Under the pieces are notes generated by a model that was not told the origin of the DNA, made no database searches, and saw nothing but the letters and a program-made list of their open reading frames with translations. The position numbers and the translations under genes are program-made. DNA of 64,000 bases from NCBI GenBank assembly GCA_963783375.1, contig CAWANH010000029.1, forward strand, positions 1 to 64,000, written 5' to 3'. Source of the DNA: Candidatus Eiseniibacteriota bacterium (GTDB lineage: Bacteria > Eisenbacteria > RBG-16-71-46 > JABDJR01). The first letter of the stretch is position 1. The number at the start of each line of letters is the position of its first letter. Below, piece by piece: positions 3,756-64,000 of this stretch.

Positions 3756-4014
3756 GAAACCCTACCGTGAGCGGCACGGATTACCAGCCAGGCCGACAAG
3801 TCGTGCTATTCATGTGCCGGGTCCTGCACACCGTGCCCACGAGGATGGTCCCTCATGGTCCGATACCTGGACTGGACGCGGGCACGGACGGCATGTCCTT
3901 CAGTACCTCAACCCACTCCCTGATCTCGGATGTGGGGGGAAATCGACCCACTCCGCGAAACGGGTGTTTGCAAAGAGTCCGTCCCAGTATCCGCAGACTG
4001 TTGGAGACGCAACC

Positions 4015-5139
4015 ATGAAACGTACCTTCTTCCTGGCCTCAACAGGCCTAGTCGCTGGGCTCCTCTTTGCTTCGACAAGCACAGCTAGGGTCCTTAGGGT
4101 ACCGTCAACAGTCCCCACGATACCGGCGGCAATCGATTCGGCGGCAGCCGGGGACACAATCCTCGTCGCTCCAGGGACCTACTACGTCAACCTGGACACC
4201 GGTGGGAAGTGGCTTGTCATCTTGAGCGAGGCAGGTAGAGAGGAGACGATCCTGGACGGCAATAGGACCGGATCTGTGGTGGTGCTGGACGGAGGTGGAG
4301 TGATCGAGGGGTTCACTATCCAGAACGGATGGGCTGAACACTACGGGGGAGGAGTATTTGCCACTGATTATGGGCACGCACCCGCAGGAGGGCGCATTGA
4401 AGACTGCGCAATCCAGCACAATCAGGCCGGCACCTACGACGACGGTGGGGGTGGTGGAGTCTTCAGCGACCTCGGCTTCGGGCTCCTGATAAGGGGCTGC
4501 AAGATTGCCGACAATTATGCCGGTGTATTCGGCGGCGGCGTAACTACCGCTCGCGGGAGCGTGATCGACTGTGAAGTTCTGCGAAACGGATGCCATGTCT
4601 CAGGGGGCGGAATCGATGGTTGTTATGACATCAAGGACAGCCTCATCGCTGGAAACTGGTGCGATTGGTACGGGGCTGGTATTTGCAATCCAGGACGCGA
4701 GGTGATAAACAACACCATTGTCGGAAATCACAACACTGGCTATGGCGTTCAGGTAAACGGCATCTATGGCGGGGCTGGCACTATTGAGAAGAATGTGATC
4801 GCGTTCAATGTAAACCACCTGTTAGGTGACTCTGGCATAGGCGTAGCGGTTAGCCTTCAGGACTGCGTGTTCAGGTGTAATGATATATTTGGCCATCCGG
4901 ATGGAGATCTGGACTGCGGGATCGGTTGTGACACTACCGGGACCAACAATCTTTCGGCTGATCCCCTCTTCTGCGATCCAGAGAACGGTGACTACGGGAT
5001 CCGCAGTGATTCCCCCTGTCGCGCGGCGGAGAGCGATGGTTGTGGTCTCATAGGCGCTTTCGGGATTGGGTGTTTGTCAACGCCGGTCGAGAGGACGACG
5101 TGGGGAAGTCTCAAATTGCGATACGGGAGCGGCAGATGA
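4015..5139 (+). CDS. Secreted right-handed beta-helix (pectin lyase-like) protein with TWG tail
   Basis: GGAG SD; signal peptide; TIPAAIDSAAAGDTILVAPGTY; repeated GGG/N-rich coils; ADPLFCD...SDSPC; ends TPVERTTWGSLKLRYGSGR. Confidence 0.8.
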   Translation: MKRTFFLASTGLVAGLLFASTSTARVLRVPSTVPTIPAAIDSAAAGDTILVAPGTYYVNLDTGGKWLVILSEAGREETILDGNRTGSVVVLDGGGVIEGFTIQNGWAEHYGGGVFATDYGHAPAGGRIEDCAIQHNQAGTYDDGGGGGVFSDLGFGLLIRGCKIADNYAGVFGGGVTTARGSVIDCEVLRNGCHVSGGGIDGCYDIKDSLIAGNWCDWYGAGICNPGREVINNTIVGNHNTGYGVQVNGIYGGAGTIEKNVIAFNVNHLLGDSGIGVAVSLQDCVFRCNDIFGHPDGDLDCGIGCDTTGTNNLSADPLFCDPENGDYGIRSDSPCRAAESDGCGLIGAFGIGCLSTPVERTTWGSLKLRYGSGR

Positions 5140-7112
5140 ACCAACGGGCGGTCGTCACTACGATATTCATTCTCCTGGCAATCTGTATTCTTCCGCCGGC
5201 GATTTGGGCAAAGGATGACTATGGGTGCCCGGTGGAGGACCCTACCGCCTTCATGGCGCCGCTGACCGTCGACGGCGATACGATGGTAATTGCGATCCTG
5301 TTTGTCACGATAGATCCGGATAGTTTGACCTTACCCGCATGGGCTGATTCTGTTTCGCTGGATATCCGTGATTTTCTAGAGACGATGTCCGGCGGGCAAC
5401 AGGCAGTGCGATCATTTGTAGTACACAGACCAGAGCCAAGCGCAAATCTCGCTTGGCTTGTAACTGGCGTGCCGGATTGCAGTGAAGCGTATGGCTACGC
5501 CGAGGCTAATGCCAAGGCAATTGCCGCAGTTGACAGCGTATGGCCCGGCTACTGGGTTGCTGCGGACCACGTTGTTAACTTCATCGCTTGTGTATATCTC
5601 ACGTGTGTTGGTGGATGCGCTGGCGGGACTCTTGGTCTTGGCAATCTCGTGGATCCTGAAGTATATCCGCCAATGTCCACGGGATGCACGTTGACAATGA
5701 ACTTTGCCGAAGGCCGCAAGAATCCATTGGAAATTGCCATGATGCATGAATATGGTCATGGTCTGGGCGATGGAGGTAGCGAACCTGGTAAATTGCACTA
5801 TATGATACATCCCCCAGACACCTATAAGGGTAAACCCTGGAGCTACAAAGTTAATATGGGGCAATATATGCTGGTTATGAACAAGAGCTTTAAGGGTAAT
5901 CCCCGTTCTGAAGAGGGGCTGGTCCCATACATTCCGATGAATCTGCTTCTGGTCGGGAATACAAAGCGATGGTTGCCGGACCCAATTGTTGTAAGCAGTA
6001 ACAGATTCGACTTTGCTTTACCGGATCTCTACGGAACCCCTGCGAACAACCGGCGGATTGCGAAGCTGTTGTGCGCGGGAAGCAGCCAGTATTTTATAAT
6101 CGCGAATCATCAAGGACAAACAGCCTACGACTCAAAGTACGGTGGAAAGGGTCTTTCAATATGGCACATACTGCCTGACACTATCGCGGGGGTTAGGCAA
6201 CTTTATGACTTAGCTTGGGACCTTGAGGTTGCGAGTGGTAAGTGGTCTGTAGGCGTGGCGGATCCTGAAAGTGGGGTGGATAGTCTCGAAGCGGATTCGC
6301 TGTACACCGGAGGTGAAGGTGATTTGTTTTGTGGTGATGAAGGAGCTATGGAGTTCAATTGTAGGACAAATCCGAATTCTAATGCATACCGCTTTGGAGA
6401 TGATTTCTATAGCGCACAATCAACGCCCACACATGTTGAGATTAGGAACATTCATCGAGATCTTAGTGATACCACGGTTATGCGGATGGATATATTGTTT
6501 ACGCCCGTGCAAAAGGTGTTGCAACCTAATGGTGGTGAGGAAGTTGATTGGGGCGACACGGTGATTGTGGAATGGGATGTTCGGGAATGTGCCAGCGTGG
6601 ATGACGTTGGGATTTGGATTATCTCGGACAGTGGTCTAAGGGACTGTCTTGGGGTAGTGGGGAACACTGGCTCCTACTCGTTTCCGGTTCACGAACCATG
6701 CGGCGAGCAGTACCGCGTAGTAGTCGAGAGCTTCGGCCCTGACGGCACGGGGTACGCGGACAGCTCGGATGCGACGTTCACGATTAACTCTCCCTTGCAG
6801 CGAGTCCTTGAGCCAAACGGAGGGGCGGATTCTACGTATGCGCGGGGTGACGTGATGACGGTGCGGTGGGATGCCTGTGCAGATGCTCCGTTCGTTGATA
6901 TCTTTCTCACGGGAGGCTGCAGTGGCGAGGAACGGGTGCTTGCGACGGTGGAGAATTCGGGTACAGCGTACTTCAGGGTTCTGCAACCCGAGGGGAGTGA
7001 TTACAAGATTGGGGTGAGAACTGCTGTTCAAAACAACGTGTATGCCGACGAATCGGACGGGCCATTCAGAATAGAAGATCCCAGGATCTGCGGCATCCAG
7101 CAACAGCAGTAG
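5136..7112 (+). CDS. Secreted zinc metallopeptidase (M6/immune inhibitor A-like) with two PNGG Ig-like repeats
   Basis: ATGA overlap; signal peptide; HEYGHGLG zinc motif; QYFIIANHQ...YD...GLSIWHI; two repeats beginning VLQPNGGE / VLEPNGGA and ending DSSDATFTI / DESDGPFRI. Possibly 3'-truncated. Confidence 0.65.
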   Translation: MNQRAVVTTIFILLAICILPPAIWAKDDYGCPVEDPTAFMAPLTVDGDTMVIAILFVTIDPDSLTLPAWADSVSLDIRDFLETMSGGQQAVRSFVVHRPEPSANLAWLVTGVPDCSEAYGYAEANAKAIAAVDSVWPGYWVAADHVVNFIACVYLTCVGGCAGGTLGLGNLVDPEVYPPMSTGCTLTMNFAEGRKNPLEIAMMHEYGHGLGDGGSEPGKLHYMIHPPDTYKGKPWSYKVNMGQYMLVMNKSFKGNPRSEEGLVPYIPMNLLLVGNTKRWLPDPIVVSSNRFDFALPDLYGTPANNRRIAKLLCAGSSQYFIIANHQGQTAYDSKYGGKGLSIWHILPDTIAGVRQLYDLAWDLEVASGKWSVGVADPESGVDSLEADSLYTGGEGDLFCGDEGAMEFNCRTNPNSNAYRFGDDFYSAQSTPTHVEIRNIHRDLSDTTVMRMDILFTPVQKVLQPNGGEEVDWGDTVIVEWDVRECASVDDVGIWIISDSGLRDCLGVVGNTGSYSFPVHEPCGEQYRVVVESFGPDGTGYADSSDATFTINSPLQRVLEPNGGADSTYARGDVMTVRWDACADAPFVDIFLTGGCSGEERVLATVENSGTAYFRVLQPEGSDYKIGVRTAVQNNVYADESDGPFRIEDPRICGIQQQQ

Positions 7113-52026: not shown

Positions 52027-53295
52027 TTGTCCGCACCGACTTTGGTACTCATCGTGGGCTTCGTGGCCCTCTTGGCCCTCTCGGGGACCTTCTCCGGAAG
52101 CGAGACCGCGCTCTTTTCCCTGGATCGGATCCAGCTTCGCCGGTTCGAGAGGTCCGCCTCCCGGCGGGAGCGCCTGGTGGCGGCGGTGGCCGCCCGCCCC
52201 GAACGGCTCCTGGCCGGAATTCTCTTCGGCAACACCCTGGTGAACGTGGCCGGTTCCAGCGTCATGCTGGCCATCGTCCGCCGGCTCCACGACCATTTCT
52301 GGGGCCTGGATCCGGTATCGACCTCGGTGGTCCTGGCCAGCGGGGTCATCCTCCTCCTGGGGGAGATCCTCCCCAAGGGCCTGGCCGTCCACTGGCCCAC
52401 CTGGTTCGCGCCGTTCTTCATTCCCGTTCTGGCCCCGATCCTCAAGATCTTGGCCCCGGCTACGGGGCTCCTGGAGCGGGCGGCCCTGGGGTTCCTGGGC
52501 ACCCTGGGGGAGCAACCGGGGGTGAGCCTGGGGCGGCGCGAGCTCCAGGTCCTCTTCGAGGACATCCAGGCCGGCAAGGAGATCACCGAGGACGAGGGGG
52601 AGATCGCGGCCAACATCTTCGAGTTCTTCGAGACCCGGGCCCACGAGATCATGACCCCCCGGGTGGATCTGGCCGGCGTGCCGGTGGACATCTCCCGCGC
52701 CGAGCTTCGCGACCGGGTGGTGGAGGCCCGCCACAGCCGGCTCCCGGTTTACCGCGACACCCTCGACCAGATCGTGGGCTTCATCAACACCAAGGAGTTC
52801 CTTCTCGATCCCGACCTTCCCCTGGATGCGCTGCTCCGGCCGGTTCACTTCGTGCCGGAACGGGCCCGGCTGCACCGGGTCCTGGCCGATGTCCAGGCCC
52901 GGCGTCTGAACCTCGTGGTGGTGGTGAACGAGTACGGGGGCACCGCCGGCCTCATCACCAAGGAGGACCTGGTGGAGACGGTGGTGGGGGAGATCTTCGA
53001 CGAGCTGGAGCCGGACCAGGCCCCGCCCCTGGAGCCGTTGGAGGACGACACCTGGCGGGTGGATGGGCTCTATCCCCTCGACGACCTGGCCGGGGAGATC
53101 GCGGTCCGGCTGCCCCCGGGGCCGGTCCAGACCGTGGCCGGCCACGTGGCCCATCTCCTCGGCCGCCCGCCCCGCCCGGGCGACGCGGTCACCGACGGGC
53201 CGGTCATCTACCGCGTGCTCTCGGTCCGGCGCCACCGGGCGCACCGGATCCTGGTCCGGGTGAGACGCCACCGGCCCGAAGAGGGGCGGCCGTGA
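52027..53295 (+). CDS. CNNM/CorC (TlyC) family CBS-domain membrane protein
   Basis: FSGSETALFSL; GNTLVN; GEILPK; IMTPRVD; VNEYGGTAG. Confidence 0.9.
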   Translation: MSAPTLVLIVGFVALLALSGTFSGSETALFSLDRIQLRRFERSASRRERLVAAVAARPERLLAGILFGNTLVNVAGSSVMLAIVRRLHDHFWGLDPVSTSVVLASGVILLLGEILPKGLAVHWPTWFAPFFIPVLAPILKILAPATGLLERAALGFLGTLGEQPGVSLGRRELQVLFEDIQAGKEITEDEGEIAANIFEFFETRAHEIMTPRVDLAGVPVDISRAELRDRVVEARHSRLPVYRDTLDQIVGFINTKEFLLDPDLPLDALLRPVHFVPERARLHRVLADVQARRLNLVVVVNEYGGTAGLITKEDLVETVVGEIFDELEPDQAPPLEPLEDDTWRVDGLYPLDDLAGEIAVRLPPGPVQTVAGHVAHLLGRPPRPGDAVTDGPVIYRVLSVRRHRAHRILVRVRRHRPEEGRP

Positions 53296-53296
53296 C

Positions 53297-54526
53297 ATGA
53301 TCCCGTTCCTGATCGTGCTCGCGGTGCTCGGATCGGCCCTCTTCGCCGGGCTGGAGACGGGCGTGGTCTCGCTGAACCGCATCCGGCTTCGCGTGCGGGC
53401 CCGGCGGGGAGACGCTCCGGCCGCCCGGCTGCTCCAACTTCTCCAGCGCCCGGAGCGGGTGCTGTCCACCTTCCTGGTGGGGAACACCCTCTGCAATGTG
53501 GGGGGCGGGGCCCTGGCCAGCTACTGGGCCGTGCAGGGCCTCCGGCTCGGGGAAACCGCAGGCTCGCTCGCCGCCACCGCGGGCATGACCGCGATCTTCC
53601 TGGTGTTTTCCGAGCTCGGGCCCAAGGCCTACTTCCGGGTGCGCGCCGAAGACGCGGTGCCGCGGTTCCTCTGGTTCATCCGCATCGTCACCGTCGTCCT
53701 GGCCCCGATCGAGTGGGTCTCCTCCGCGTTCCTGCACCTCCTGATCGGGCGATCCGGGAAGAGCGCGTTCGTGAGCCGGGAGGAGCTCCGGCAACTCGTG
53801 CGGGAGGCGCGGGAGCGGCTCGGCACCGGTCAGCAGCGGATGCTGGAGAGCATCTTCGACTTCGGTCACACCGTGGCCCGCGAGGTCATGATCCCGCTCC
53901 CCGAGGTCGTATCGCTCCCCGAGTCGGCCTCGGTGGAGGAGCTGTTCGAGCTGGTCCGCCTCCGCCGCTACACCCGCATTCCGCTCTACCGGGACCGGGT
54001 GGACGCGATCGTGGGCCTGGTGAACGTGTTCGACGTCCTCTACGATCGGGAGCAGGCTCCGCGGGTGGCCGCCTACCGCCGGGACATCCACATCGTGCCC
54101 GAGACCTCCCTCGTCCACCGGATCCTGGTGGAGCTTCAGCACCGGCGGGAGACCATGGCCCTGGTGGTGAACGAGTTCGGCGCCTGCACCGGCATCGTCA
54201 CCGTGGAGGACATCGTCGAGGAGATCATGGGGGAGCTGGTCGACGAACATGAGGAGCTGACCCACCCCATCCAGAAGGTGAGCGACGGCTACGTGGTGGA
54301 CGCCGCGCTCGACATCGACGACCTGAACGAGGAGATGGGTCTCTCGTTGGCCAAGGACCGGTTCGACACCTTGGGGGGGCTGGTGCTCCGGAGGCTCGGG
54401 CGCATTCCGGGGGTGGGCGAACGCGTGAAAGTCGGTAATCTGGAGATCGAGGTGGTGGCCGTCCACCCCTACGGGTTGAAGCGGGTCAAGATTCGTCTCC
54501 TTGAAGGAGGGCCGGGAGAAAAGTGA
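53297..54526 (+). CDS. CNNM/CorC (TlyC) family CBS-domain membrane protein (paralog)
   Basis: FAGLETG; LVGNT; SELGPK; VNEFG..GIVTVEDIVEEIMGE. Confidence 0.9.
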   Translation: MIPFLIVLAVLGSALFAGLETGVVSLNRIRLRVRARRGDAPAARLLQLLQRPERVLSTFLVGNTLCNVGGGALASYWAVQGLRLGETAGSLAATAGMTAIFLVFSELGPKAYFRVRAEDAVPRFLWFIRIVTVVLAPIEWVSSAFLHLLIGRSGKSAFVSREELRQLVREARERLGTGQQRMLESIFDFGHTVAREVMIPLPEVVSLPESASVEELFELVRLRRYTRIPLYRDRVDAIVGLVNVFDVLYDREQAPRVAAYRRDIHIVPETSLVHRILVELQHRRETMALVVNEFGACTGIVTVEDIVEEIMGELVDEHEELTHPIQKVSDGYVVDAALDIDDLNEEMGLSLAKDRFDTLGGLVLRRLGRIPGVGERVKVGNLEIEVVAVHPYGLKRVKIRLLEGGPGEK

Positions 54527-57477
54527 GGGGTCGCCGTCGGGTTTCAGTTCGTCGGGCTCGTTCGTTCTTCGCGGTGATGGGCGTCGCTTGGCTCTCGCTC
54601 GTCGCCGGCGCCGCCTTGGCGCTGGAGGACGCCCCGGCGCCCCCGCGCTCGCCGCGCCCGGGGGTGGGGCCGGAGCCCTGGGCGGACTTCCGTCCCACCG
54701 AGCGTCCGGTCACCGGGTTCGTTCCGCTGAGCGGCGCGGTGGCGCCGTCGGTCTGGGAGGGATGGATCCGGGCGTCGGCATCCCCCGGGGCGCCCCGGCC
54801 CGCGTCGGGACCGACCGGAGCCGGGGTAGCCGCGTCCCGGTCCGCCGCATCGCCGGCCGGGGCCGCGTTTCTCGATCGGGAGCGCCCGGCGTTCCGGGAT
54901 GCGTGGGAGGCCGCGCTGGCCGCCGCCCGCCGGAACGACCCCGCCGGCGTGCGTCGTGCCCTGGCCGGGGCCGAGCCGTCCACCGCGGAAGGGGCGCAGC
55001 GCGAGGCCCGCCTCGCCTTCGCGGCCGCGGTGGCTGCGGAGGACCGCGCCGCCGCCGACTCGGTCTTCTATCGCATCTCCTGGGACGACGCCGGCCGCAC
55101 CGGGGCCCGGCTCGCCGCCTGGCGCGCCCTCGAGGAGGGAAATTTCTCCGAGGCGGCCCGGGTGCTGGCCGGCCTCTCCGCTCCCACGTCGGGGGAGCGG
55201 GCCGCCGCCGCCCTGGCTCGCTGGAGCGCCGATCCGTCGCGACCGGACGATTCGCTGTTCGGGGTGGAAGCGGGGGGCGCCGCCGGAACGGCCCTGGCCA
55301 TGGCCCGGGCGCGGAGCGCGCTCATCCGAGGCGATTTTCCCGCCGCGCGGGACGCCCTCGCCGGGATCGACACCGCCGCGGCGCCGGAGACCTGGCGGCC
55401 GACCCTGGCACTTCTCCGGGCCCGCACCCGGACCGGAGAGACGGAAACCCCCGCCGGGGCCGGGGAGGACGCGACCGCCTACCACGAGGCGGCGCAGGCC
55501 TTCGTGGAACAGGACCTCCGGCGGGCGGGCGAGCTTCTCGATCGCTGGCTGGTGAGCTTTCCCGCCTCGCCCTACCGTCCGCAGGCGTACCTGTTGCGAG
55601 GCGGGGTCCGGCTCGCCCAAGGGGAGGTCGCTCGCGCCGCGGACGATCTCACGGTGGCCGAGCGAAGCGGCGGGGGAGAGACCGCGGAACGCGCGCGGCT
55701 GGCCCGGGCGTTTCTGCTCGCCCAGCGAAATCGCGGCGGGGAGGGGCTTCGGCTCTTCGAGGCGGTGCAGGCCGGACCGCTGGGCGCAGACGCCGAGCCC
55801 GAGCTCCTGTTCGACCGCGCGCGCCTGGCCCGCCTCCTCGGGGACGACTCCACCACCGTCCGCGTCCGCCTGGAGTTGGAGGAAGGGTATCCGGACGCGC
55901 CCTGGGCGGTTCGGGTCGAGTCGGACACCGAGGCCTCGAAGTGGCGCGCACCATGGCCGGCGCTTCCACCCGAGCCGGCGGGAGCGCGGACCGTGCCCGC
56001 CCCCCGGGGCGGTCCGATCGGAGCGCTTCTGTGGGGGGAGGCCGAGCTTCCCCGCGCCGCCGGGCGGCTGAGCGTGTCCGCGTCGGCGCCGGCTTCATCC
56101 TCCACGCCGGCGGTTCCGCCCCCGGGGGTGATGGCGACCTCGACTCCGTCCGCGGCCCCCTCCGGAAACCGGCCCCGCCTCTTCGGCGGAGTGGCGGGCG
56201 GGGGACCCGCCGCGGTGCTCCTGGAAGGCGCGGGCGGGGGACGTGTGGGCGGACTCCTCTATCGGGGATGGCTGTCCCGGGTTCTCTCCTCCCAGCCGGA
56301 TCACCTTCCCGATCTCCGCCGCACCGACGGCGAAGGCGCCCTGGGATGGCGGGACGGGAGCGCGCGGCTCGACCTGGCCGGCGAGGGAGCCTGGCGCCAC
56401 GACGACCCCGCCGGCGGGGTCGGGCTCACGGGCCGGGGGGTGACCGCATCCTGGAAGGGGGTTCGGGGAAACGCGGCCTACGACCCGGGGGGATCCGTCC
56501 GCGGTTCGGGGTACGTGGCCTGGGCTCGCGGAGCCCTCGACACCACCGGGAACCGCAACTGGCGCACCGACCAGGTCTTCTTCGGCGCTTCCGGCGTCGC
56601 GAGCCGGGGCGGTGTCCGATGGAGCGGACGCCTGGACGTCGGCCGACTCGACCAGCGGCAGCCCGACTTCGAGCCGTTCCGGTACTGGTACCGGGATCTC
56701 CGGGTGGCCCGTCGCGCCCCCGGAGGCTGGTACCTGGGTGGCCGGCTCTCCGCCTATCACGATCGCGCCCTGTTGATGCCGGTGGCCGGGGTGGAGCGGG
56801 GCCTGGGCTCGGGGTGGACGGCCTGGGCGGCCACCGAACCCGGCATGGAGCTTCCCGCATTCGACCGCACCTTCGTCCGGGACGGCGATTGGAACGTTCC
56901 GGATCTCAGCCTCCCCGCGGAACGGCGCGACCTGGATCTTCGCGGGGGGATCCGCTGGCGCGGCTTCGGGGCCGACTCCGCCGGGGTACGGGTGGAAGCG
57001 TTCCACGCCGGCTCCTACCGGACCTGGAGCCGGGTGAACGGCGTGTTCGCCGAACGGGCGCTGGACGGAGCCACCGGGTCCCGGCTTATCTTCACCGGAG
57101 GAACGGGGGGTGGGACGGCGCGCCTCTCCGGGCGGCTGGCCGTTCAGAGCATCCGCTCCGGTGGCCGCGACGTACCCTACGTTCCCCGCGCGGAAGGCCG
57201 GCTGGAACTGGCGGTGGCCTCGCGGGGTTGGCAGGGTCACGTGGCCGCGCTGGCCGAGGGGGGACGCAAGGAGGAGGCGGGAACGAGCTACGGCTCTTTC
57301 CTGCGCTTCGACCTCGGGGTGGCCTATCGCCTCGAGGAAGGGGATCTTCCCTTCGGCGCCCGGTGGGTGGAGCTGACGATCCGGGTGCGAAACCTCACCG
57401 ACCAGGCCGACCGCCGTTGGCCCGGGGTGCCGGGCGCCGGCATCGGAGTCTACGGGGGCGTCCAGGCGCTGTACTAG
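54523..57477 (+). CDS. TPR-containing protein fused to an outer-membrane beta-barrel (TonB-dependent-receptor-like C-terminus)
   Basis: Signal-like N-terminus; TPR motifs SFPASPY and YPDAPW; Pro/Ser linker; alternating-aromatic strands; ends NLTDQ...W...GIGVYGGVQALY. Confidence 0.6.
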   Translation: MRGRRRVSVRRARSFFAVMGVAWLSLVAGAALALEDAPAPPRSPRPGVGPEPWADFRPTERPVTGFVPLSGAVAPSVWEGWIRASASPGAPRPASGPTGAGVAASRSAASPAGAAFLDRERPAFRDAWEAALAAARRNDPAGVRRALAGAEPSTAEGAQREARLAFAAAVAAEDRAAADSVFYRISWDDAGRTGARLAAWRALEEGNFSEAARVLAGLSAPTSGERAAAALARWSADPSRPDDSLFGVEAGGAAGTALAMARARSALIRGDFPAARDALAGIDTAAAPETWRPTLALLRARTRTGETETPAGAGEDATAYHEAAQAFVEQDLRRAGELLDRWLVSFPASPYRPQAYLLRGGVRLAQGEVARAADDLTVAERSGGGETAERARLARAFLLAQRNRGGEGLRLFEAVQAGPLGADAEPELLFDRARLARLLGDDSTTVRVRLELEEGYPDAPWAVRVESDTEASKWRAPWPALPPEPAGARTVPAPRGGPIGALLWGEAELPRAAGRLSVSASAPASSSTPAVPPPGVMATSTPSAAPSGNRPRLFGGVAGGGPAAVLLEGAGGGRVGGLLYRGWLSRVLSSQPDHLPDLRRTDGEGALGWRDGSARLDLAGEGAWRHDDPAGGVGLTGRGVTASWKGVRGNAAYDPGGSVRGSGYVAWARGALDTTGNRNWRTDQVFFGASGVASRGGVRWSGRLDVGRLDQRQPDFEPFRYWYRDLRVARRAPGGWYLGGRLSAYHDRALLMPVAGVERGLGSGWTAWAATEPGMELPAFDRTFVRDGDWNVPDLSLPAERRDLDLRGGIRWRGFGADSAGVRVEAFHAGSYRTWSRVNGVFAERALDGATGSRLIFTGGTGGGTARLSGRLAVQSIRSGGRDVPYVPRAEGRLELAVASRGWQGHVAALAEGGRKEEAGTSYGSFLRFDLGVAYRLEEGDLPFGARWVELTIRVRNLTDQADRRWPGVPGAGIGVYGGVQALY

Positions 57478-57517
57478 TTCGGCAGATCGATCTCACACGG
57501 CTTATCACGGAGGGCTC

Positions 57518-58150
57518 ATGTTCGAGTTGTTCACCCGGGGCGGGCTGGTGATGTACGCCATCCTGCTCTGCTCCATCGCTTCCCTGGCCATCATCCTGGA
57601 GAAGCTCTTCCTGCTTCGGGCCACCAAGCAGCGGATGGACGCCTTCCAGGCCCGCATTCAGGGCATCCTCAAGTACGGGCACCTGGACGAGGTCGAGCGC
57701 CGGGCCCGCGAACAGCCGAATCCCCTGGCCCGGATCTTCATCGCCGGGCTGGAGAAGCTCGGTCAGGGCGAAAACCGCATCAAGGAGGCCATCCAGTACG
57801 CGGGAGAGAAGGAGGCGCGCCGCCTCCGGTCCCACGTGGCCGGGCTGGCCACCATCGTGGCCGGGGCGCCGCTCCTCGGTTTCCTGGGCACCGTTCTGGG
57901 AATGATCGAGGCCTTCCGGCAGATCGAGATGCTGGGCGGCAACGTCAACGCCTCGGTCCTGGCCGGGGGCATCTGGCAGGCCCTGCTCACCACCGCCGCC
58001 GGGCTCACCGTGGCCGTGCCCACCCTCTTCGCCCATAACTGGATCGTGAGCCGCATCCGCGCCATGGTGGAGGAGCTCGAGGAGGCGTCGCAGACGCTGC
58101 TCGATTCCCTGCATCCCGCCGCGGACGATCCGAAACGGGGGGCGGAGTAG
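57518..58150 (+). CDS. exbB: MotA/TolQ/ExbB proton channel
   Basis: GGLVM; APLLGFLGTVLGMI; GIWQALLTTAAGL. Confidence 0.9.
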   Translation: MFELFTRGGLVMYAILLCSIASLAIILEKLFLLRATKQRMDAFQARIQGILKYGHLDEVERRAREQPNPLARIFIAGLEKLGQGENRIKEAIQYAGEKEARRLRSHVAGLATIVAGAPLLGFLGTVLGMIEAFRQIEMLGGNVNASVLAGGIWQALLTTAAGLTVAVPTLFAHNWIVSRIRAMVEELEEASQTLLDSLHPAADDPKRGAE

Positions 58151-58566
58151 TGTTCCACTTCGAGGATCAGGATCAGACCATCGGCGGCATGGAGACCGCG
58201 GCCTTCGCCGACATCATTTTCCTGCTTCTCATCTTCTTTCTTCTGTCGTCTTCGTTTATATTGCCAACAGGGATTCCCGTGAACCCGCCGAAGTCGGACA
58301 CCGCGGTGACCGCCAAGGAGCAACCGATCGTGGTGACGATCACCCGCTCCGGCGACGCCTACGTGGACGAGGACAAGGTACCGTTCGCGGATCTGGCCAC
58401 CACCCTCGGGGCGCGGCTCTCGAGCGCGCCGATCAAGTCGGTGGTGGTGCGGGGCGACAAGGCGGTGAGCCTGGGCCGGCTGGTGGAGGTGCTGGACATG
58501 GCCCGCAGCGCCGGCGCGGAAAAGCTGGCCATCGCCACCGAGCAGAAGAACTCCCGCCGTCCGTGA
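58150..58566 (+). CDS. exbD: ExbD/TolR biopolymer transport protein
   Basis: ADIIFLLLIFFL; VVVRGDK; VLDMARSAG. Confidence 0.9.
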   Translation: MFHFEDQDQTIGGMETAAFADIIFLLLIFFLLSSSFILPTGIPVNPPKSDTAVTAKEQPIVVTITRSGDAYVDEDKVPFADLATTLGARLSSAPIKSVVVRGDKAVSLGRLVEVLDMARSAGAEKLAIATEQKNSRRP

Positions 58567-58657: not shown

Positions 58658-59743
58658 ATGGCTGGAGCAACCACGACCCGTTCCTGGGGAGAGCTGGCGT
58701 TTCTCGAGATGCCGGTGCCCGCGGTGGTGCTCGACGCCAAGCGGCGCGTCCTCGCGGCCAATCCTCCCGCCTGCGCCGTGTTGCGGGCCACCATCGACGA
58801 ACTCAGGGGTCGCGATCTCACCGAGGTGATCAAGAGCGACGACCCCACGTGGTGGAGCACCGACCCGGTGGACCGGCTCGGCTCGCCCTCGATCGGGCGG
58901 CGGCTCCGGGCCCGGATCAAGGGCCGGCGGCGCCTGCTCAAGGTCGGGGTGTATCCCCTCCGCGACGGCGAGGAGGAGGTCGGGGCCCTGGTCACCGTGC
59001 GCGACGCCCGGACCGCGGATCGCGATCCCCACGAGGAGAACGACCACCTCGCTTCCCTGGGTGAGCTCTCGGCCTGCGTGGCCCACGAGATCCGGAACCC
59101 CCTGACCGGCGTCCGCACCACCGTCCAGTTCGTGGATTCCAAGCTCGAACGCGACGATCCCCGGCACGAGGACCTGGAGGAGGTGATCAAGGAGCTGGAT
59201 CGGATCGAGCAGATCATCGGCGATCTCCTGCTCTTCGCCCGTCCCGCCGAGGGGCACAAGGCACTGAGCGATCTCAACGGTCTGGTGGGCCGGGTCCTCG
59301 ACTCCATGGAGGCCCAGTTCGCCGAGGCCGAGGTCGAGGTGAAGCGGAACCTCTCCGCCGACCTGCCCGAGTTCGTGTTCAGCCCCGACAACCTGCAGCA
59401 GGTGCTTCTGAACCTGATCCGGAACGCCCTGGAATCCATGCCCGAGGGGGGGCGGCTCCGGGTAACCACCACCGTGCGCCGCTTCCGGTCCGGCCGGCCC
59501 CCGGCGGCGGAGATTTTCGTGAGCGACACCGGACACGGGATTCCCGAGGATCTCCTGGATGAGATCTTCAAACCCTTCTTCACCACCCGGCACAACGGCA
59601 CCGGGTTGGGGCTTCCCATCTCCGCCAGCATCGTCCGGGGCCACTCGGGACGCATCACCGCCCGGAACCGGCGGCCGGGGGGGGCGACGTTCCGGGTGTC
59701 GCTTCCCCTTCCCCCGCTCCCCGAGGAACCGGCCCGGCCGTGA
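58658..59743 (+). CDS. PAS-domain sensor histidine kinase
   Basis: VAHEIRNPL; NLIRNA; DTGHGI; PFFTT; GTGLGL. No TM segment. Confidence 0.93.
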   Translation: MAGATTTRSWGELAFLEMPVPAVVLDAKRRVLAANPPACAVLRATIDELRGRDLTEVIKSDDPTWWSTDPVDRLGSPSIGRRLRARIKGRRRLLKVGVYPLRDGEEEVGALVTVRDARTADRDPHEENDHLASLGELSACVAHEIRNPLTGVRTTVQFVDSKLERDDPRHEDLEEVIKELDRIEQIIGDLLLFARPAEGHKALSDLNGLVGRVLDSMEAQFAEAEVEVKRNLSADLPEFVFSPDNLQQVLLNLIRNALESMPEGGRLRVTTTVRRFRSGRPPAAEIFVSDTGHGIPEDLLDEIFKPFFTTRHNGTGLGLPISASIVRGHSGRITARNRRPGGATFRVSLPLPPLPEEPARP

Positions 59744-61155
59744 TACCGACCGTTCTCATCATCGACGACGAGCCCTCGGTGGGGCGTTCCCTGACCCGGG
59801 TGCTGACCGACCGGGGCTGGCGGGTTTCGGTGACCCATGCCGCGGCCGAAGGGCTGATACGGGCCCAGGCCGAGCGCCCCCAGGTGGTTCTCCTGGATCA
59901 TCACCTCCCGGACGCGGACGGTCCCGACGTGCTTTCCTCGCTCCTGGAGCTGGACCCGCGGGTTCGGGTGATCGTGATCACCGCCTTCGGGGACACCTCC
60001 CTGGCGGTTCGCTTCATCAAGGCCGGGGCCTTCGATTTCCTGACCAAGCCCTACGAGATGGAGCAGCTCGTGCATGCGGTGGAAGCCGCCCGCCGGGATT
60101 CCGACGCCCAGCTCCGGCTCTCCCTCTACCACCTGCGGGAGACCCGATCGGGCTCGGTGACCCGGATGGTGGGGGAGAGCTCGGCCATCCTCGAGGTGCT
60201 CTCGATCGTGGAGAAGGTAGCCCGCTCGGACGCCACCAGCGTTCTCCTGAGCGGGGAGAGCGGCACGGGGAAGGAGCTGGCGGCCCGGGCCGTCCACGAG
60301 CTGAGCGACCGGGCCGGGGCCCCGTTCATGGACCTCAACTGCTCCACCTTCTCCGAAACCCTGCTCGAGAACGAGCTGTTCGGACACGAGAAGGGGGCCT
60401 ACACCGATGCCCGGGAGACCAAGCTCGGGCTGGTCGAGCTCACCGACGGGGGGACCCTCTTCCTGGACGAGGTGGCGGACATGCCGCTCATGACCCAGGG
60501 AAAGCTCCTCCGGTTTCTCGATTCCCGCCAGTTCAAGCGGGTGGGTGGAACCCGGGACCTGGACGTGGACATCCGCATCGTGGCCGCCAGCAACAAGGAC
60601 ATCCCCACGGCGATCGAGGCCGGGACCTTTCGCGAGGATCTCTACTACCGGCTCAAGGTGGTCTCCATCCACCTTCCTCCGCTTCGCGAGCGGGGAGAGG
60701 ACGTCCTGCTCCTCGCCACCCACTTCCTGGAGCAGTACGGCCGGAAGTTCAACCGCCGCTTCGACGGGCTGAGTCCCGAGGCGGCGGAGGCGTTGGCAAA
60801 CTACGCCTGGCCGGGGAACGTGCGCGAGCTCAAGAACGTGATCGAGCGGGCGGTACTCCTGGAGGACGGTCCGGTGTTGAAGGTCGAGCACCTCCCGCGG
60901 GAACTGGCCCGCGAGGAACATGGACTCCGTTTCCCCGAGGGCGCGGTCCCCACCCTGCAGGACGTGGAGGATCAGCACGTGCTTCGGGTGCTCGAGCACA
61001 CCGGCCGCAACAAGTCCCAGGCCGCCCGCCTCCTGGGGATCTCCCGCCAGAGTCTCCTCGACCGACTGAAGCGCCTCGATGACCGGACGGAGGGCTCCGT
61101 TTCCGGCGACTACCCGCCCGCGTCACCCTCCCTGGACGCCCCCTCCCGGCCATAG
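59740..61155 (+). CDS. Sigma-54-dependent response regulator (NtrC/AtoC family)
   Basis: REC domain; GESGTGKE; ELFGHEKGAYTDA; LFLDEV; FREDLYYRL; WPGNVREL; Fis-type HTH. Confidence 0.95.
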   Translation: MIPTVLIIDDEPSVGRSLTRVLTDRGWRVSVTHAAAEGLIRAQAERPQVVLLDHHLPDADGPDVLSSLLELDPRVRVIVITAFGDTSLAVRFIKAGAFDFLTKPYEMEQLVHAVEAARRDSDAQLRLSLYHLRETRSGSVTRMVGESSAILEVLSIVEKVARSDATSVLLSGESGTGKELAARAVHELSDRAGAPFMDLNCSTFSETLLENELFGHEKGAYTDARETKLGLVELTDGGTLFLDEVADMPLMTQGKLLRFLDSRQFKRVGGTRDLDVDIRIVAASNKDIPTAIEAGTFREDLYYRLKVVSIHLPPLRERGEDVLLLATHFLEQYGRKFNRRFDGLSPEAAEALANYAWPGNVRELKNVIERAVLLEDGPVLKVEHLPRELAREEHGLRFPEGAVPTLQDVEDQHVLRVLEHTGRNKSQAARLLGISRQSLLDRLKRLDDRTEGSVSGDYPPASPSLDAPSRP

Positions 61156-61467
61156 CGCCGGCTTTTCGACGTTTATTTTGGCGAATATGGCGGTTGCCCC
61201 CGGAATGTCCACGTCGTTGCCGGCCGCGTGCTGTCCAGAACCTTGGCGGTGCCCAAAATCTGTACAGTCTTTGCCGATATGCCGCGCGCACGACTTAACG
61301 CATAACAGCACAATGGATTACACGTTTCGGACTCGGGTAGGAATCCTGTAACTATCCAAGTAATGGACACTTGCGAGGGGTGGGAATCCCCGTTTCCGAG
61401 ACGAAATGTCAAGTCATTATGGCTTAACGTGATGCAGCATAGTGTGTTATGTGTGTTTCGGTGTTGA

Positions 61468-61483
61468 TGGCACGAATAATGCT
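61468..61483 (+). promoter_or_regulatory. Sigma-54 (-24/-12) promoter
   Basis: TGGCACG-AATA-ATGCT with exact GG-N10-GC spacing, followed by a GGAGG SD and GTG start at 61518. Confidence 0.75.
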
Positions 61484-61517
61484 TTATGTCTTACCGTCGG
61501 AGGACTGGGGGTTTGTT

Positions 61518-61952
61518 GTGGCGAAGACGGTTCTGATCGTCGAGGACGAGCGGCTCTTGGCCCGGACGCTTGCCACCGCCTTGAAGGAAGTCGGATACGA
61601 CGCCGTCGTGACGAATTCCATGGATCAAGCGGAGGAGAAGTGGTTCGGAGAGTGTTCGTTCGATCTCGTCATCCTGGACAACCGTTTGCCGAAGGGAACC
61701 GGACTGGGCCTGCTCCAGTCGGCCCGGGAGCATGGGCGTGAGTCGAAGATCATCTTCATGACCGCGTTCGGCAACCGGGAGATTCGGTCGGAGGCCCGCC
61801 GGCTCCAGGTGGACAAGTACGTCCGCAAACCGTTCGACCTCGACAAGATGATCCGAAGCGTGACCGAGCTCATCGGGAGTCCCAATAACGGGGCGTCGGT
61901 GAATCCCCAAAAGGAGGGGGTGAGTAAGCATGGCGAAGAAGAAGGCGACTAA
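61518..61952 (+). CDS. Single-domain response regulator (receiver)
   Basis: VLIVEDE; VILDNRLP; MTAF; VRKPFD. Confidence 0.88.
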   Translation: MAKTVLIVEDERLLARTLATALKEVGYDAVVTNSMDQAEEKWFGECSFDLVILDNRLPKGTGLGLLQSAREHGRESKIIFMTAFGNREIRSEARRLQVDKYVRKPFDLDKMIRSVTELIGSPNNGASVNPQKEGVSKHGEEEGD

Positions 61953-62292
61953 GAAGAAGACCGCGAAGCGGAAGACCGCCAAGAAGAAGACCGCCAAGCG
62001 CAAGACCAAGAAGAAGGCGGCCAAGAAGAAGACCGCCAAGCGCAAGACCAAGAAGAAGGCCGCCAAGAAGAAGACCGCGAAGCGGAAGACCAAGAAGAAG
62101 GCCGCCAAGCGCAAGACCAAGAAGAAGGCCGGCAAGAAGAAGACCGCGAAGCGGAAGACCAAGAAGAAGGCCGCCAAGAAGAAGACCGCGAAGCGGAAGA
62201 CCAAGAAGAAGGCCGCCAAGCGCAAGACCAAGAAGAAGGCCTCCAAGCGCAAGACCAGCAAGTCCGCGTCGAGCCGCATGGTCAAGATGTAG
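61930..62292 (+). CDS. Histone H1-like Lys/Ala/Thr-rich basic protein
   Basis: AAGGAGG upstream; MAKKKA followed by repeated [14 protein letters not shown] units; stem-loop terminator downstream. Confidence 0.85.
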
Positions 62293-62340
62293 CTTCGACA
62301 AAGGCTGCGATCCCACGCTCAGCCGAGGGATCGAGGTCGA

Positions 62341-62389
62341 GAGGGGTCGGACCGGGATGTGTTTCCGGGCCGGCCCCTTCTGTTTTTTT
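62341..62389 (+). terminator. Rho-independent terminator
   Basis: GAGGGGTCGGACCGGGA...TTCCGGGCCGGCCCCTT stem followed by TGTTTTTTT. Confidence 0.7.
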
Positions 62390-62405
62390 CGCTACAATCC
62401 TCTCC

Positions 62406-64000
62406 ATGTCCGAGCGCCCGCCCAGAGCCGACGCCCCCAGAACGGTCATTCGGGTCCGGGGCGCCCGCCAGAACAACCTCAAGAACATCGACGTCAGCCT
62501 CCCCCGGCGCGCCCTCACCGTGGTGACCGGGGTGAGCGGCTCGGGGAAATCGAGCCTGGCCATGGACACCCTCTACGCCGAGGGGCAACGCCGCTACCTC
62601 GAGGGGGTTTCCGCCCACGCGCGACGTTTCCTGGAGCGGCTTCCCCGGCCCGAGGTCGACCGGGTGGAGGGACTTTCCCCCGCGGTGTCCCTGGGCCAAC
62701 GCTCCGGGGTCCGAAGCGCCCGATCCACCGTGGGCACCAGCACCGAGATCCACGACTATCTCCGGCTTCTCTTCGCCCGCGCCGGCCGGGTCATCTGCGA
62801 CCGGTGCGGGACGGAGGTATCCCGGTGGACGGTGGAGGGAGTGGTGGAGGCGTGGTCGGGGGACCCGGAGCGCGGCCGGCGTCTCCTGATCTCGTTTCCG
62901 TACCCACGGGATGCCGGCGATCCCCGGGCGCTTCGCCGGGCGCTCATGGCCCGAGGCTATCTCCGGGCGGTGGTGGCGGGTGTAGCGGTGGACCTGGCTG
63001 AGGCCCCCGACCGGGCGGCGGAGTGGGACATTCTCCAGGACCGGGTTCGGGAGGGACGGCGGGGGCGACTCGCCGAGGCTCTGGGCGCGGCCTTCGCCCA
63101 GGGCCGGGGGCGGGCCACGGTGCACGCCGACGGGGAGCCGGCGGCGCGATACCGGTTGGGGCGGGTGTGCGCGGGCTGCGGCGGGAGCTATCCCGACCCC
63201 CATCCCCTCCATTTCTCCTTCAACAGCCCGGTCGGGGCCTGCCCGGCCTGCCAGGGGTTCGGCTACATCCTGGAGTTCGATCCGGAGAAGATCGTCCCCG
63301 ATGCGGGTCGCACCCTCGACGAAGGCGCGGTGGTGCCGTGGGCGGGGCGCTGGAGGAGCTGGGCCCTGAAGAAACTCGCCGCCTCCCCCCGGGCCCGGTC
63401 GATCCCCCGCGACCTCCCGTTCCGGGAGCTCGCGGAGGAGGACCGGGGCTTCCTGTTCGCCGGTGACCGCACCTTTCCCGGGGTCATGCGTTTCCTGGAA
63501 AGGCTTTCCCGGAAGGGCTACAAGGCGGGGGCGCGCTTTCTGGTCAAGCGGTACCAGAGTCCCCGCCTCTGCCCGGACTGTGGCGGAAGCCGGCTCCGGG
63601 CCGAGGGACGGCGGGTGCGGGTGGGGGGAAAGAGCCTCCCGGAATGGTCCGAGCTGCCCGTGGCCGATCTGGCGCCGTTCCTCGAAGGGCTCGACCCGAC
63701 CCCGCGGGAACGGGAGACGGTGCGCGCGCTCCTCGGTGACCTCGTTCATCGCCTCGGGGTCCTGGACCGGGTCGGACTGGGATACCTAACCCTGAGCCGG
63801 CTCACCCGAACCCTCTCCGGCGGCGAGGCCCAGCGGATCGAGCTGGCTCAGGCCCTGGGGGCGAGCCTGGTGGATGCGCTGTACGTTCTCGACGAGCCCA
63901 CGGTGGGTCTCCATCCCCGCGACACCGGCCGCCTCCTGGAGGTGCTCCGGGATCTCACCGGTCAGGGAAACACCGTGGTGGTGGTGGAGCACGATCGCGA
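62406..64000 (+). CDS. uvrA: Excinuclease ABC subunit A (5' part, runs off the window)
   Basis: [11 protein letters not shown]; [12 protein letters not shown]; AEGQRRY; [13 protein letters not shown]; [10 protein letters not shown]; LDEPTVGLH, all in one frame. Confidence 0.95.

Follow-up and report, generated by a model that had tools for sequence, protein, structure and literature searches.

A predicted sigma-54 circuit for a lysine-rich polycation across Candidatus Eisenbacteria

We analysed a gene cassette at positions 58,658–62,389 of a 64,000 nt stretch of Candidatus Eiseniibacteriota DNA (contig CAWANH010000029.1; hereafter the window), which encodes a sensor kinase, an activator of sigma-54-dependent transcription, a lone receiver and a 120 aa lysine-rich basic protein. 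An earlier note, made from the sequence alone, had suggested that a sigma-54 circuit drives the last two of these genes. This is supported by rpoN, the lack of which the note had named as a reason to abandon the idea and which is present in the host genome (G000; 4.73 Mb, 97 % complete), as well as by a −24/−12 box, palindromic sites, IHF-like sites and gene order, which proved to be kept phylum-wide when relatives were compared, as the note had proposed. We therefore regard this regulatory reading, reached by sequence comparison, as very probably correct. The phylum-wide circuit is real and is a new version of a known sigma-54 two-component type; as judged from the loci compared, its one constant product is the basic open reading frame (ORF), and we somewhat favour nucleoid binding as the main role of the encoded polycation.

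The kinase–activator pair and its predicted promoter

The kinase was found to contain PAS, HisKA and HATPase domains, and we consider it to be without a transmembrane helix because its maximal 19-residue hydropathy is 0.96, in agreement with the soluble PAS kinase of the earlier note. Its H143 is invariant in all 20 aligned orthologs, among which the PAS domain is weakly conserved, and its stop codon overlaps the GTG start of the activator gene by 4 nt. The activator has the domain order REC, Sigma54_activat, AAA lid and HTH_8, and passed the Pfam cut-offs with 91, 215 and 38.5 bits for REC, Sigma54_activat and the Fis helix–turn–helix (HTH), respectively (cut-offs 30.2, 20.2 and 22). Residues D53 (phosphoacceptor), K178 and D243/E244 (Walker A/B) and R298/R304 (arginine finger) are invariant in 26/26 sequences, and the recognition segment of the HTH is conserved, with S435, R436 and L439 invariant. 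The domain models and the loop likewise bear out the description of a sigma-54 activator with a variant GAYTDA motif; in 28 relatives covering the loop we observed GAFTDA (14), GAFTGA (seven), GAYTDA (six) and one other form, and the excerpt of PMC4641369 consulted documents GAYTDA and GAFTDA loops in Desulfovibrio DVU2275 and DVU2106. Neither protein reached any NCBIfam equivalog cut-off shown (AtoS, 251 vs 646 bits; AtoC, 403 vs 714; NtrC, 388 vs 559; likewise ZraS/ZraR and GlrK/GlrR), and the names of homologs were generic. The genome of the window specifies ∼24 full sigma-54 activator domains and two HU/IHF genes.

The arrangement resembles NtrB/NtrC and AtoS/AtoC in its PAS-HisKA-HATPase kinase, its REC-AAA+-Fis HTH activator, its IHF-like sites and −24/−12 box, and its palindromic sites 100–250 bp upstream. 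It also resembles Desulfovibrio sigma-54 systems, for which the same excerpt describes looping and co-location of the activator with its target (PMC4641369). Unlike NtrBC and AtoSC, however, it is a phylum-specific single-copy ortholog group, and in place of a metabolic operon it targets a polycation together with a lone receiver. No published description of the cassette was found in the literature on Eisenbacteria, sigma-54 and histone-like proteins, with supplements and subscription papers lying outside this coverage.

A kinase profile gave a single match at E ≤ 1 × 10−100 in 120 of the 125 Ca. Eisenbacteria genomes that are at least 90 % complete, the five misses being G004 (a partial kinase match), G101 and three genomes of family f12. 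From the first 33 receiver loci two paralogs (G033 and G029b) were dropped; among the 31 kept, the activator lay upstream in 30 and the kinase in 29, the exceptions being one contig that ends inside the activator and an unlinked second copy in G038 (L030; G038:C1:815100-822600) with two sites, box, receiver and a 116 aa basic ORF, and without an adjoining kinase or activator. The basic ORF stood 3′ of the receiver in 30/30 loci with downstream sequence, in 19/19 from a further set of 20 loci and in 10/10 of a held-out set; in total, it was found in 78/78 loci where its place is assembled. Contigs break at this place in G002, G005, G033, G056, G060, G072 and G078, neither activator nor peptide was found in G027 (85 % complete), and G048 (56 % complete) was outside the peptide search. 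One record (L054) has a receiver 77 % identical to that of the window, followed by a 96 aa basic ORF. In family f10 the activator was present in 14 of the 15 genomes tested, 13 of which have the sites, the box and a 21–27 aa peptide directly after a 94–163 nt leader, with the peptide of the other two on a separate contig. One ortholog, carrying the full cassette, was identified among 80 metagenome kinase loci, and one among 80 loci in a contig scan of genomes. Outside the phylum, 51 genomes from the one that includes G206 yielded no ortholog-level activator (best match 567 bits, vs 608–731 for orthologs and ∼505–555 for paralogs), nor was a basic ORF of this type found beside the eight best activator matches there. 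Five other named genomes had no ortholog; these negative results apply to the genomes covered, other candidate phyla lying outside the scope.

The −24/−12 promoter, called exact in the earlier note, is not so: ATGC replaces TTGC, and GG-N10-GC is kept. Within the window alone, matches with one mismatch occurred at chance level (three vs 2.46 expected), and we take the box to be real because it is conserved in relatives, where the best match 5′ of the receiver scored at least 15.5 in 31/31 orthologous loci vs 1.7 in 200 shuffles (maximum 6), the cores being GG-N10-GC in 25, GT in five and GA in one. By the usual numbering from the box, the predicted +1 position is 61,494. Both tandem palindromes that the note had placed at 61,232–61,266 were confirmed, and its count was incomplete, a third site having been overlooked (Table 1). 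The palindrome seed from the window was matched within two mismatches in 28/31 loci vs 0.8 when shuffled (maximum 5), with no match in G025, and the usual layout is a tandem pair 17–18 bp apart with a third site closer to the promoter; in the family of the window, the distance from site 3 to the −24 box is 113–116 bp in six of seven genomes and 103 bp in the seventh. The three sites form the sole cluster among 24 sites of at least 12 bits in the 4.7 Mb genome, and they rank 2, 6 and 10 of 88 under a matrix that was rebuilt without the family of the window and took its seed for choosing sites from the first matrix. Because no other palindrome cluster in the genome is as strong, the locus is likely to be the main target of the activator and may be its only one. 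Additionally, IHF-like sites, as defined by matches to a consensus, numbered 25 in 62 regions vs 5.3 when shuffled (maximum 10), clustering 40–60 and 160–220 bp ahead of the box. In 10/10 loci that had no part in building the matrix, the box and the basic ORF occurred together with one or more sites, and only one of 11 paralogous activator loci had a site, which lay downstream of its best box.

Some other occurrences of such sites were noted. At G000:C29:864202-864218 (L185), a 14.5-bit palindrome like those of the activator sites and the −24 element of a strict minus-strand sigma-54 box overlap; they stand upstream of an acyltransferase-like gene and an ABC-ATPase/rpoN/hpf/HPr-kinase-like cluster (names by eye), and the overlap could reflect repression or chance. 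A weaker triple of the same layout at G000:C28:1664144-1664251 (L184), with a pair 17 bp apart and the third site 74 bp further on, adjoins another sigma-54 activator gene and is close to a box whose spacing, judged by eye, is N9. In G115 (L136/L280), an insertion-sequence-like ORF, transposase-like by eye, starts within the first upstream site just 3′ of the activator, and the remaining promoter and the peptide are on a different contig.

The lone receiver and the basic protein

In the receiver, D9/E10, D53, T81 and K103 are invariant in 28/28 aligned sequences and the phosphorylation pocket is intact. Its start is most likely the GTG at 61,518 rather than the ATG at 61,449, as the longer ORF begins 5′ of the predicted promoter; the database entry (P0197; 167 aa from ATG 61,449) is thus probably mis-started. 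The overlap with the basic ORF described in the earlier note is real (23 nt) but species-specific: a G-run one base shorter (5 G) than in four close relatives leads to C-terminal read-through. An assembly error was considered and rejected, as a short-read contig matches positions 61,764–62,013 with 0 differences and the contig of a 90 %-identical relative is gapless there (contig X1 possibly being from the source sample and X4 from another study). Conserved coupling was rejected as well, given that the other 26 loci with a distance have a gap of 2–62 nt. Using a cut of E ≤ 1 × 10−33, set at a gap in the scores, a profile search gave ortholog-level receiver matches in 97/116 genomes outside family f10 and in 0/89 within it. 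Since f10 keeps the kinase, activator, sites and peptide, the receiver is, by this comparison, dispensable and accessory, and feedback through it, which the note had built into the logic of the circuit, is weakened as a core element. Nor is the receiver supported as a duplicate of that of the activator: in a quick tree with a poorly resolved backbone, the lone receivers group by themselves (support 99) and do not branch as sisters of the activator receivers. Feedback is thus possible but unsupported, as this tree gives no copy relation, and the receiver is probably a phosphorylatable modulator, serving as a phosphate sink or a second output. A paralogous kinase-activator-box-receiver cassette (L052; G033:C71, ∼4000–6500) has after its receiver, in place of the basic ORF, what we take from its sequence to be a FliA/WhiG-like sigma factor.

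The basic protein has 62 K, 10 R and 0 D/E among its 120 residues (net charge +72), a 111 bp higher-order repeat in its ORF and a short hydrophobic C-terminal tail. The 58 complete orthologs, from 17 families, span 13–227 aa (median 36), with 46–69 % K+R and an overall composition of 47.5 % K, 19.9 % A, 9.9 % T, 9.5 % R and 1.6 % proline, and almost no acidic residues; repeat lengths are open to misassembly, with N gaps in G058 and G059 and G020 appearing scrambled. The Shine–Dalgarno (SD) sequence reaches −12 kcal/mol or lower in 53/60 cases, with a median of −17.2 as compared with −11.2 for that of the receiver. In 27 pairs selected for equal length and at most three residue changes, 51 codon differences were synonymous and 33 were non-synonymous. 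The hydrophobic tail ends 20/26 forms of at least 50 aa vs 0/32 shorter forms, and 1/3 complete long forms of the held-out set; that it may serve as a degradation tag is a guess. Elsewhere in G000, Lys/Ala-rich tails are fused to folded domains at C3:152621-153748 (−), C29:1270706-1271728 (−) and C29:1422647-1425439 (+), one of them topoisomerase I-like, and the ORF of the window was the sole stand-alone Lys/Ala-rich ORF returned by the scan of that genome.

The parallel with Chlamydia Hc1 and Hc2 drawn in the earlier note is weakened by these comparisons. Like Hc2 and Hc2-like proteins (PF07382, NF038052, NF038053; Bordetella BpH1), the basic protein has Lys/Ala-rich tandem repeats, in-frame length variation, an even positive charge and dedicated alternative-sigma control. 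Nevertheless, the window protein gave no match to the three models at E ≤ 10, and the best of five proteins scored 32.7 vs 40 bits (PF07382), 30.3 vs 80 (NF038053) and 14.4 vs 135 (NF038052); three of four orthologs match Hc2-type models, all below cut-off. Hc2, as described in the excerpt of PMC2848022, is built of pentamers that each have two basic residues, between conserved flanks free of repeats, whereas here K+R makes up 46–69 % and there is no conserved flank. The same excerpt reports that in-frame repeats account for the variation of Hc2, which condenses DNA in E. coli, and that BpH1 is expressed in exponential phase and non-essential (PMC2848022). Chlamydia hctB, moreover, is a direct sigma-28 target without a sigma-54 promoter. 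The protein resembles the lysine-rich DNA-binding tail of Hc1 (HctA, PF07432), but the conserved N-terminal dimerisation domain of Hc1 has no counterpart here, and searching the genome with PF07432 at E ≤ 0.01 gave no match. Finally, the C-terminal repeats of Pseudomonas AlgP and PhaF are similar in being H1-tail-like and varying in length between clones, whilst those proteins differ in having an N-terminal helical domain and KPAA repeats, neither of which is present in the nearly proline-free protein described here.

Possible functions of the polycation

In NtrC-type systems, phosphorylation, site binding, IHF-aided looping and opening of a sigma-54 promoter are established. For the cassette, we propose that the soluble PAS kinase phosphorylates the adjoining activator, which would bind the three upstream palindromes, presumably aided by IHF looping, and open the single sigma-54 promoter. 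An H1-tail-like, unstructured polycation would then be made in large amounts, as the very strong SD suggests, and would bind the nucleoid non-specifically, DNA being the likely partner, so as to compact it or damp transcription. DNA binding and condensation are a reasonable inference from composition. According to excerpts of two studies, oligolysines of 3–31 charges condense plasmid DNA in vitro (PMC2790876) and condensation by H1 tails is set by charge density and proline-free stretches (PMC11331069), such that even the short forms, with their low proline content and their charge density, could act on DNA.

Several findings weigh against this scheme. The orthologs come from related genomes and are not independent samples. 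With the rebuilt matrix a weaker pair of sites appears at C28:1664161, and with a genome background seven weaker clusters appear elsewhere in G000. The finder of basic ORFs selected on K/R content, making the composition figures partly circular, 32/58 complete orthologs are shorter than 50 aa, and the window protein reached no curated Pfam or NCBIfam family cut-off; in the Atlas, recognition is low, and the clusters returned are unnamed apart from a single one with 23 % PF07382. Composition cannot name DNA as the partner, because any polycation binds any polyanion, and Hc2 itself binds RNA and represses translation, in the excerpt consulted (PMC2848022). Furthermore, whilst G071 of family f12 has the full cassette, four other genomes of this family (G019, G026, G032 and G037) have rpoN but no ortholog-level activator and no kinase or receiver. 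They nevertheless keep a 17–18 aa peptide ahead of uvrA, right behind a CNNM gene in the three with the upstream side assembled, and sigma-54 control is therefore not essential to the peptide. In these four, no correctly spaced −24/−12 box was seen by eye. A conserved TTGAC-containing word stands 5′ of the peptide in three genomes (L276:1370-1513, L277 and L278), and a sigma-70 scan found nothing in the one genome tested; the word may be either a sigma-70-type −35 element or a relic half-site.

That the polycation condenses the chromosome on a cytoplasmic signal to establish a resting state, with repeat number tuning the strength and the C-terminal tail marking long forms for degradation and hence reversal, seems doubtful to us; if true, it would make the circuit a phylum-defining single-output switch and constitute direct sigma-54 control of the nucleoid state in free-living bacteria. 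We are equally hesitant about a dormancy switch as such, for which there is no positive evidence. The dormancy or developmental role suggested in the earlier note is weakened by the prevalence of forms below 50 aa and by the f12 peptide outliving its regulators, and Spo0A-type sporulation gave no match at E ≤ 1 × 10−20.

Other explanations retain the circuit and change the partner of the polycation. It might act on RNA or ribosomes, by damping translation, forming RNA condensates or serving as a small basic ribosome-associated protein. The survival of the f12 peptide after loss of its regulators would suit such a housekeeping product, and forms of 13–30 aa match the size of tiny basic ribosomal proteins. 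Hc2 is also reported, in the excerpt already cited, to have a higher affinity for RNA and to repress translation more than Hc1 (PMC2848022). We nonetheless think this unlikely, as tandem repeats make the length vary between 13 and 227 aa and conservation is confined to K/A/T/R/V, which is unlike a pocket-fitting ribosomal protein, and no ribosomal family is matched. A general polyanion buffer, be it a polyamine substitute, a binder of membrane or lipopolysaccharide precursors, or an AlgP-like organiser of polyphosphate granules, is improbable. The H1-like repeat tail of AlgP does position such granules (PMC9239181, excerpt) and the kinase genes often lie behind the envelope genes exbB/exbD; however, there is no AlgP-type N-terminal domain or KPAA repeat, no signal peptide is visible, and ppk1 occurs in only 38/153 genomes and is absent from the genus of the window, G000 included. 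A link to polyphosphate is not required, as the cassette, unlike AlgP, persists without polyphosphate kinases: families f14 (0/4 and 0/4) and f16 (0/14 and 0/11) keep it with neither ppk1 nor ppk2 detectable. Overall, ppk2 is present in 69/125 genomes, G000 among them.

It is also conceivable, if very improbable, that RNA is the functional output. A strong anti-SD-pairing segment and the 3′ hairpin would then work as a small RNA or a sponge, and the ORF would be of secondary importance. Sigma-54 two-component systems with RNA as the sole output exist, namely GlrKR-glmY. The word GGCACGTCC is found just 5′ of the terminator, usually in a small hairpin, in 23/58 complete orthologs from five families (L032, L139, L180, L037, L040 and others), the extended SD is conserved, and non-coding RNA targets are listed for DVU2359 (PMC4641369, excerpt). 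On the other side, the word is missing from the family of the window and from most long forms, Rfam gave nothing credible in 61,100–62,450 (two matches, E 1.7–1.8) or in 12 related loci, and the reading frame is maintained throughout, as is the synonymous bias. Most improbable in our estimation is that the palindromes and box, although real, are served by another activator or are autoregulatory, the adjoining pair having other main targets. The many activator domains in the genome leave room for this, site binding here being predicted, but the four f12 genomes jointly lack the sites, box, kinase and activator, conservation extends to the HTH recognition segment, and paralog loci mostly have no sites.

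Given the sigma-54 circuit with a nucleoid-binding product that we favour, an uncultured and widespread phylum gains a near-universal, fully specified predicted circuit (kinase, activator, binding-site matrix, promoter and product) which lends itself to reconstruction in E. coli. The product is a minimal, naturally occurring polycation of 13 to 227 residues, and in many cases gene callers would miss it because of its small size. The variants found in nature (the full circuit, the circuit without the receiver, the peptide without any regulators, short vs long forms, and forms with and without the tail) offer a test of bare H1-tail-like proteins in bacteria and of nucleoid compaction as a direct signalling output.

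Features and surroundings of the locus

The features of the cassette are collected in Table 1. The spacer between the activator and the receiver (61,156–61,517) has a GC content of 52 %, compared with ∼69 % across the contigs and genome, in keeping with the AT-rich spacer of the earlier note. The terminator that it reported was also recovered: the stem at 62,342–62,377 folds at −28.1 kcal/mol and is followed by a U-tract, although a simple terminator scanner of the window did not list it.

Table 1. Coordinates of cassette features in the window
Feature	Position	Strand	Basis
PAS-HisKA-HATPase sensor kinase, soluble, 361 aa	58658-59743	+	Domain models, hydropathy, ortholog alignment
NtrC-type sigma-54 activator, REC-AAA+-Fis HTH, 471 aa, GAYTDA loop	59740-61155	+	Domain models, alignment
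Predicted activator site 1, 17 bp imperfect palindrome, consensus TGTCMA-N5-TKGACA	61232-61248		Seed/matrix matches
Predicted activator site 2	61250-61266		Seed/matrix matches
Predicted activator site 3	61353-61369		Seed/matrix matches
IHF-like site between site 3 and promoter, one mismatch vs consensus	61407-61419	+	
Predicted sigma-54 −24/−12 box, GG-N10-GC, one consensus mismatch	61468-61483	+	Conservation
Single-domain receiver, GTG start	61518-61952	+	Domain model, alignment
Extended SD for basic ORF, −16.8 kcal/mol vs 16S 3′ end of the same genome	61913-61923	+	
Lys/Ala/Thr/Arg tandem-repeat protein, 120 aa	61930-62292	+	
3′ untranslated region hairpin, family-level feature, no Rfam match	62309-62332	+	
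Intrinsic-terminator-like stem and U-tract, ahead of uvrA	62342-62389	+	

Upstream of the kinase, positions 52,027–58,566 of the window contain two CNNM/CBS/CorC genes, a gene for a 984 aa TPR-like protein, exbB and exbD. In several families, exbB/exbD likewise stand ahead of the kinase; the ancestral order is apparently CNNM-[cassette]-uvrA.

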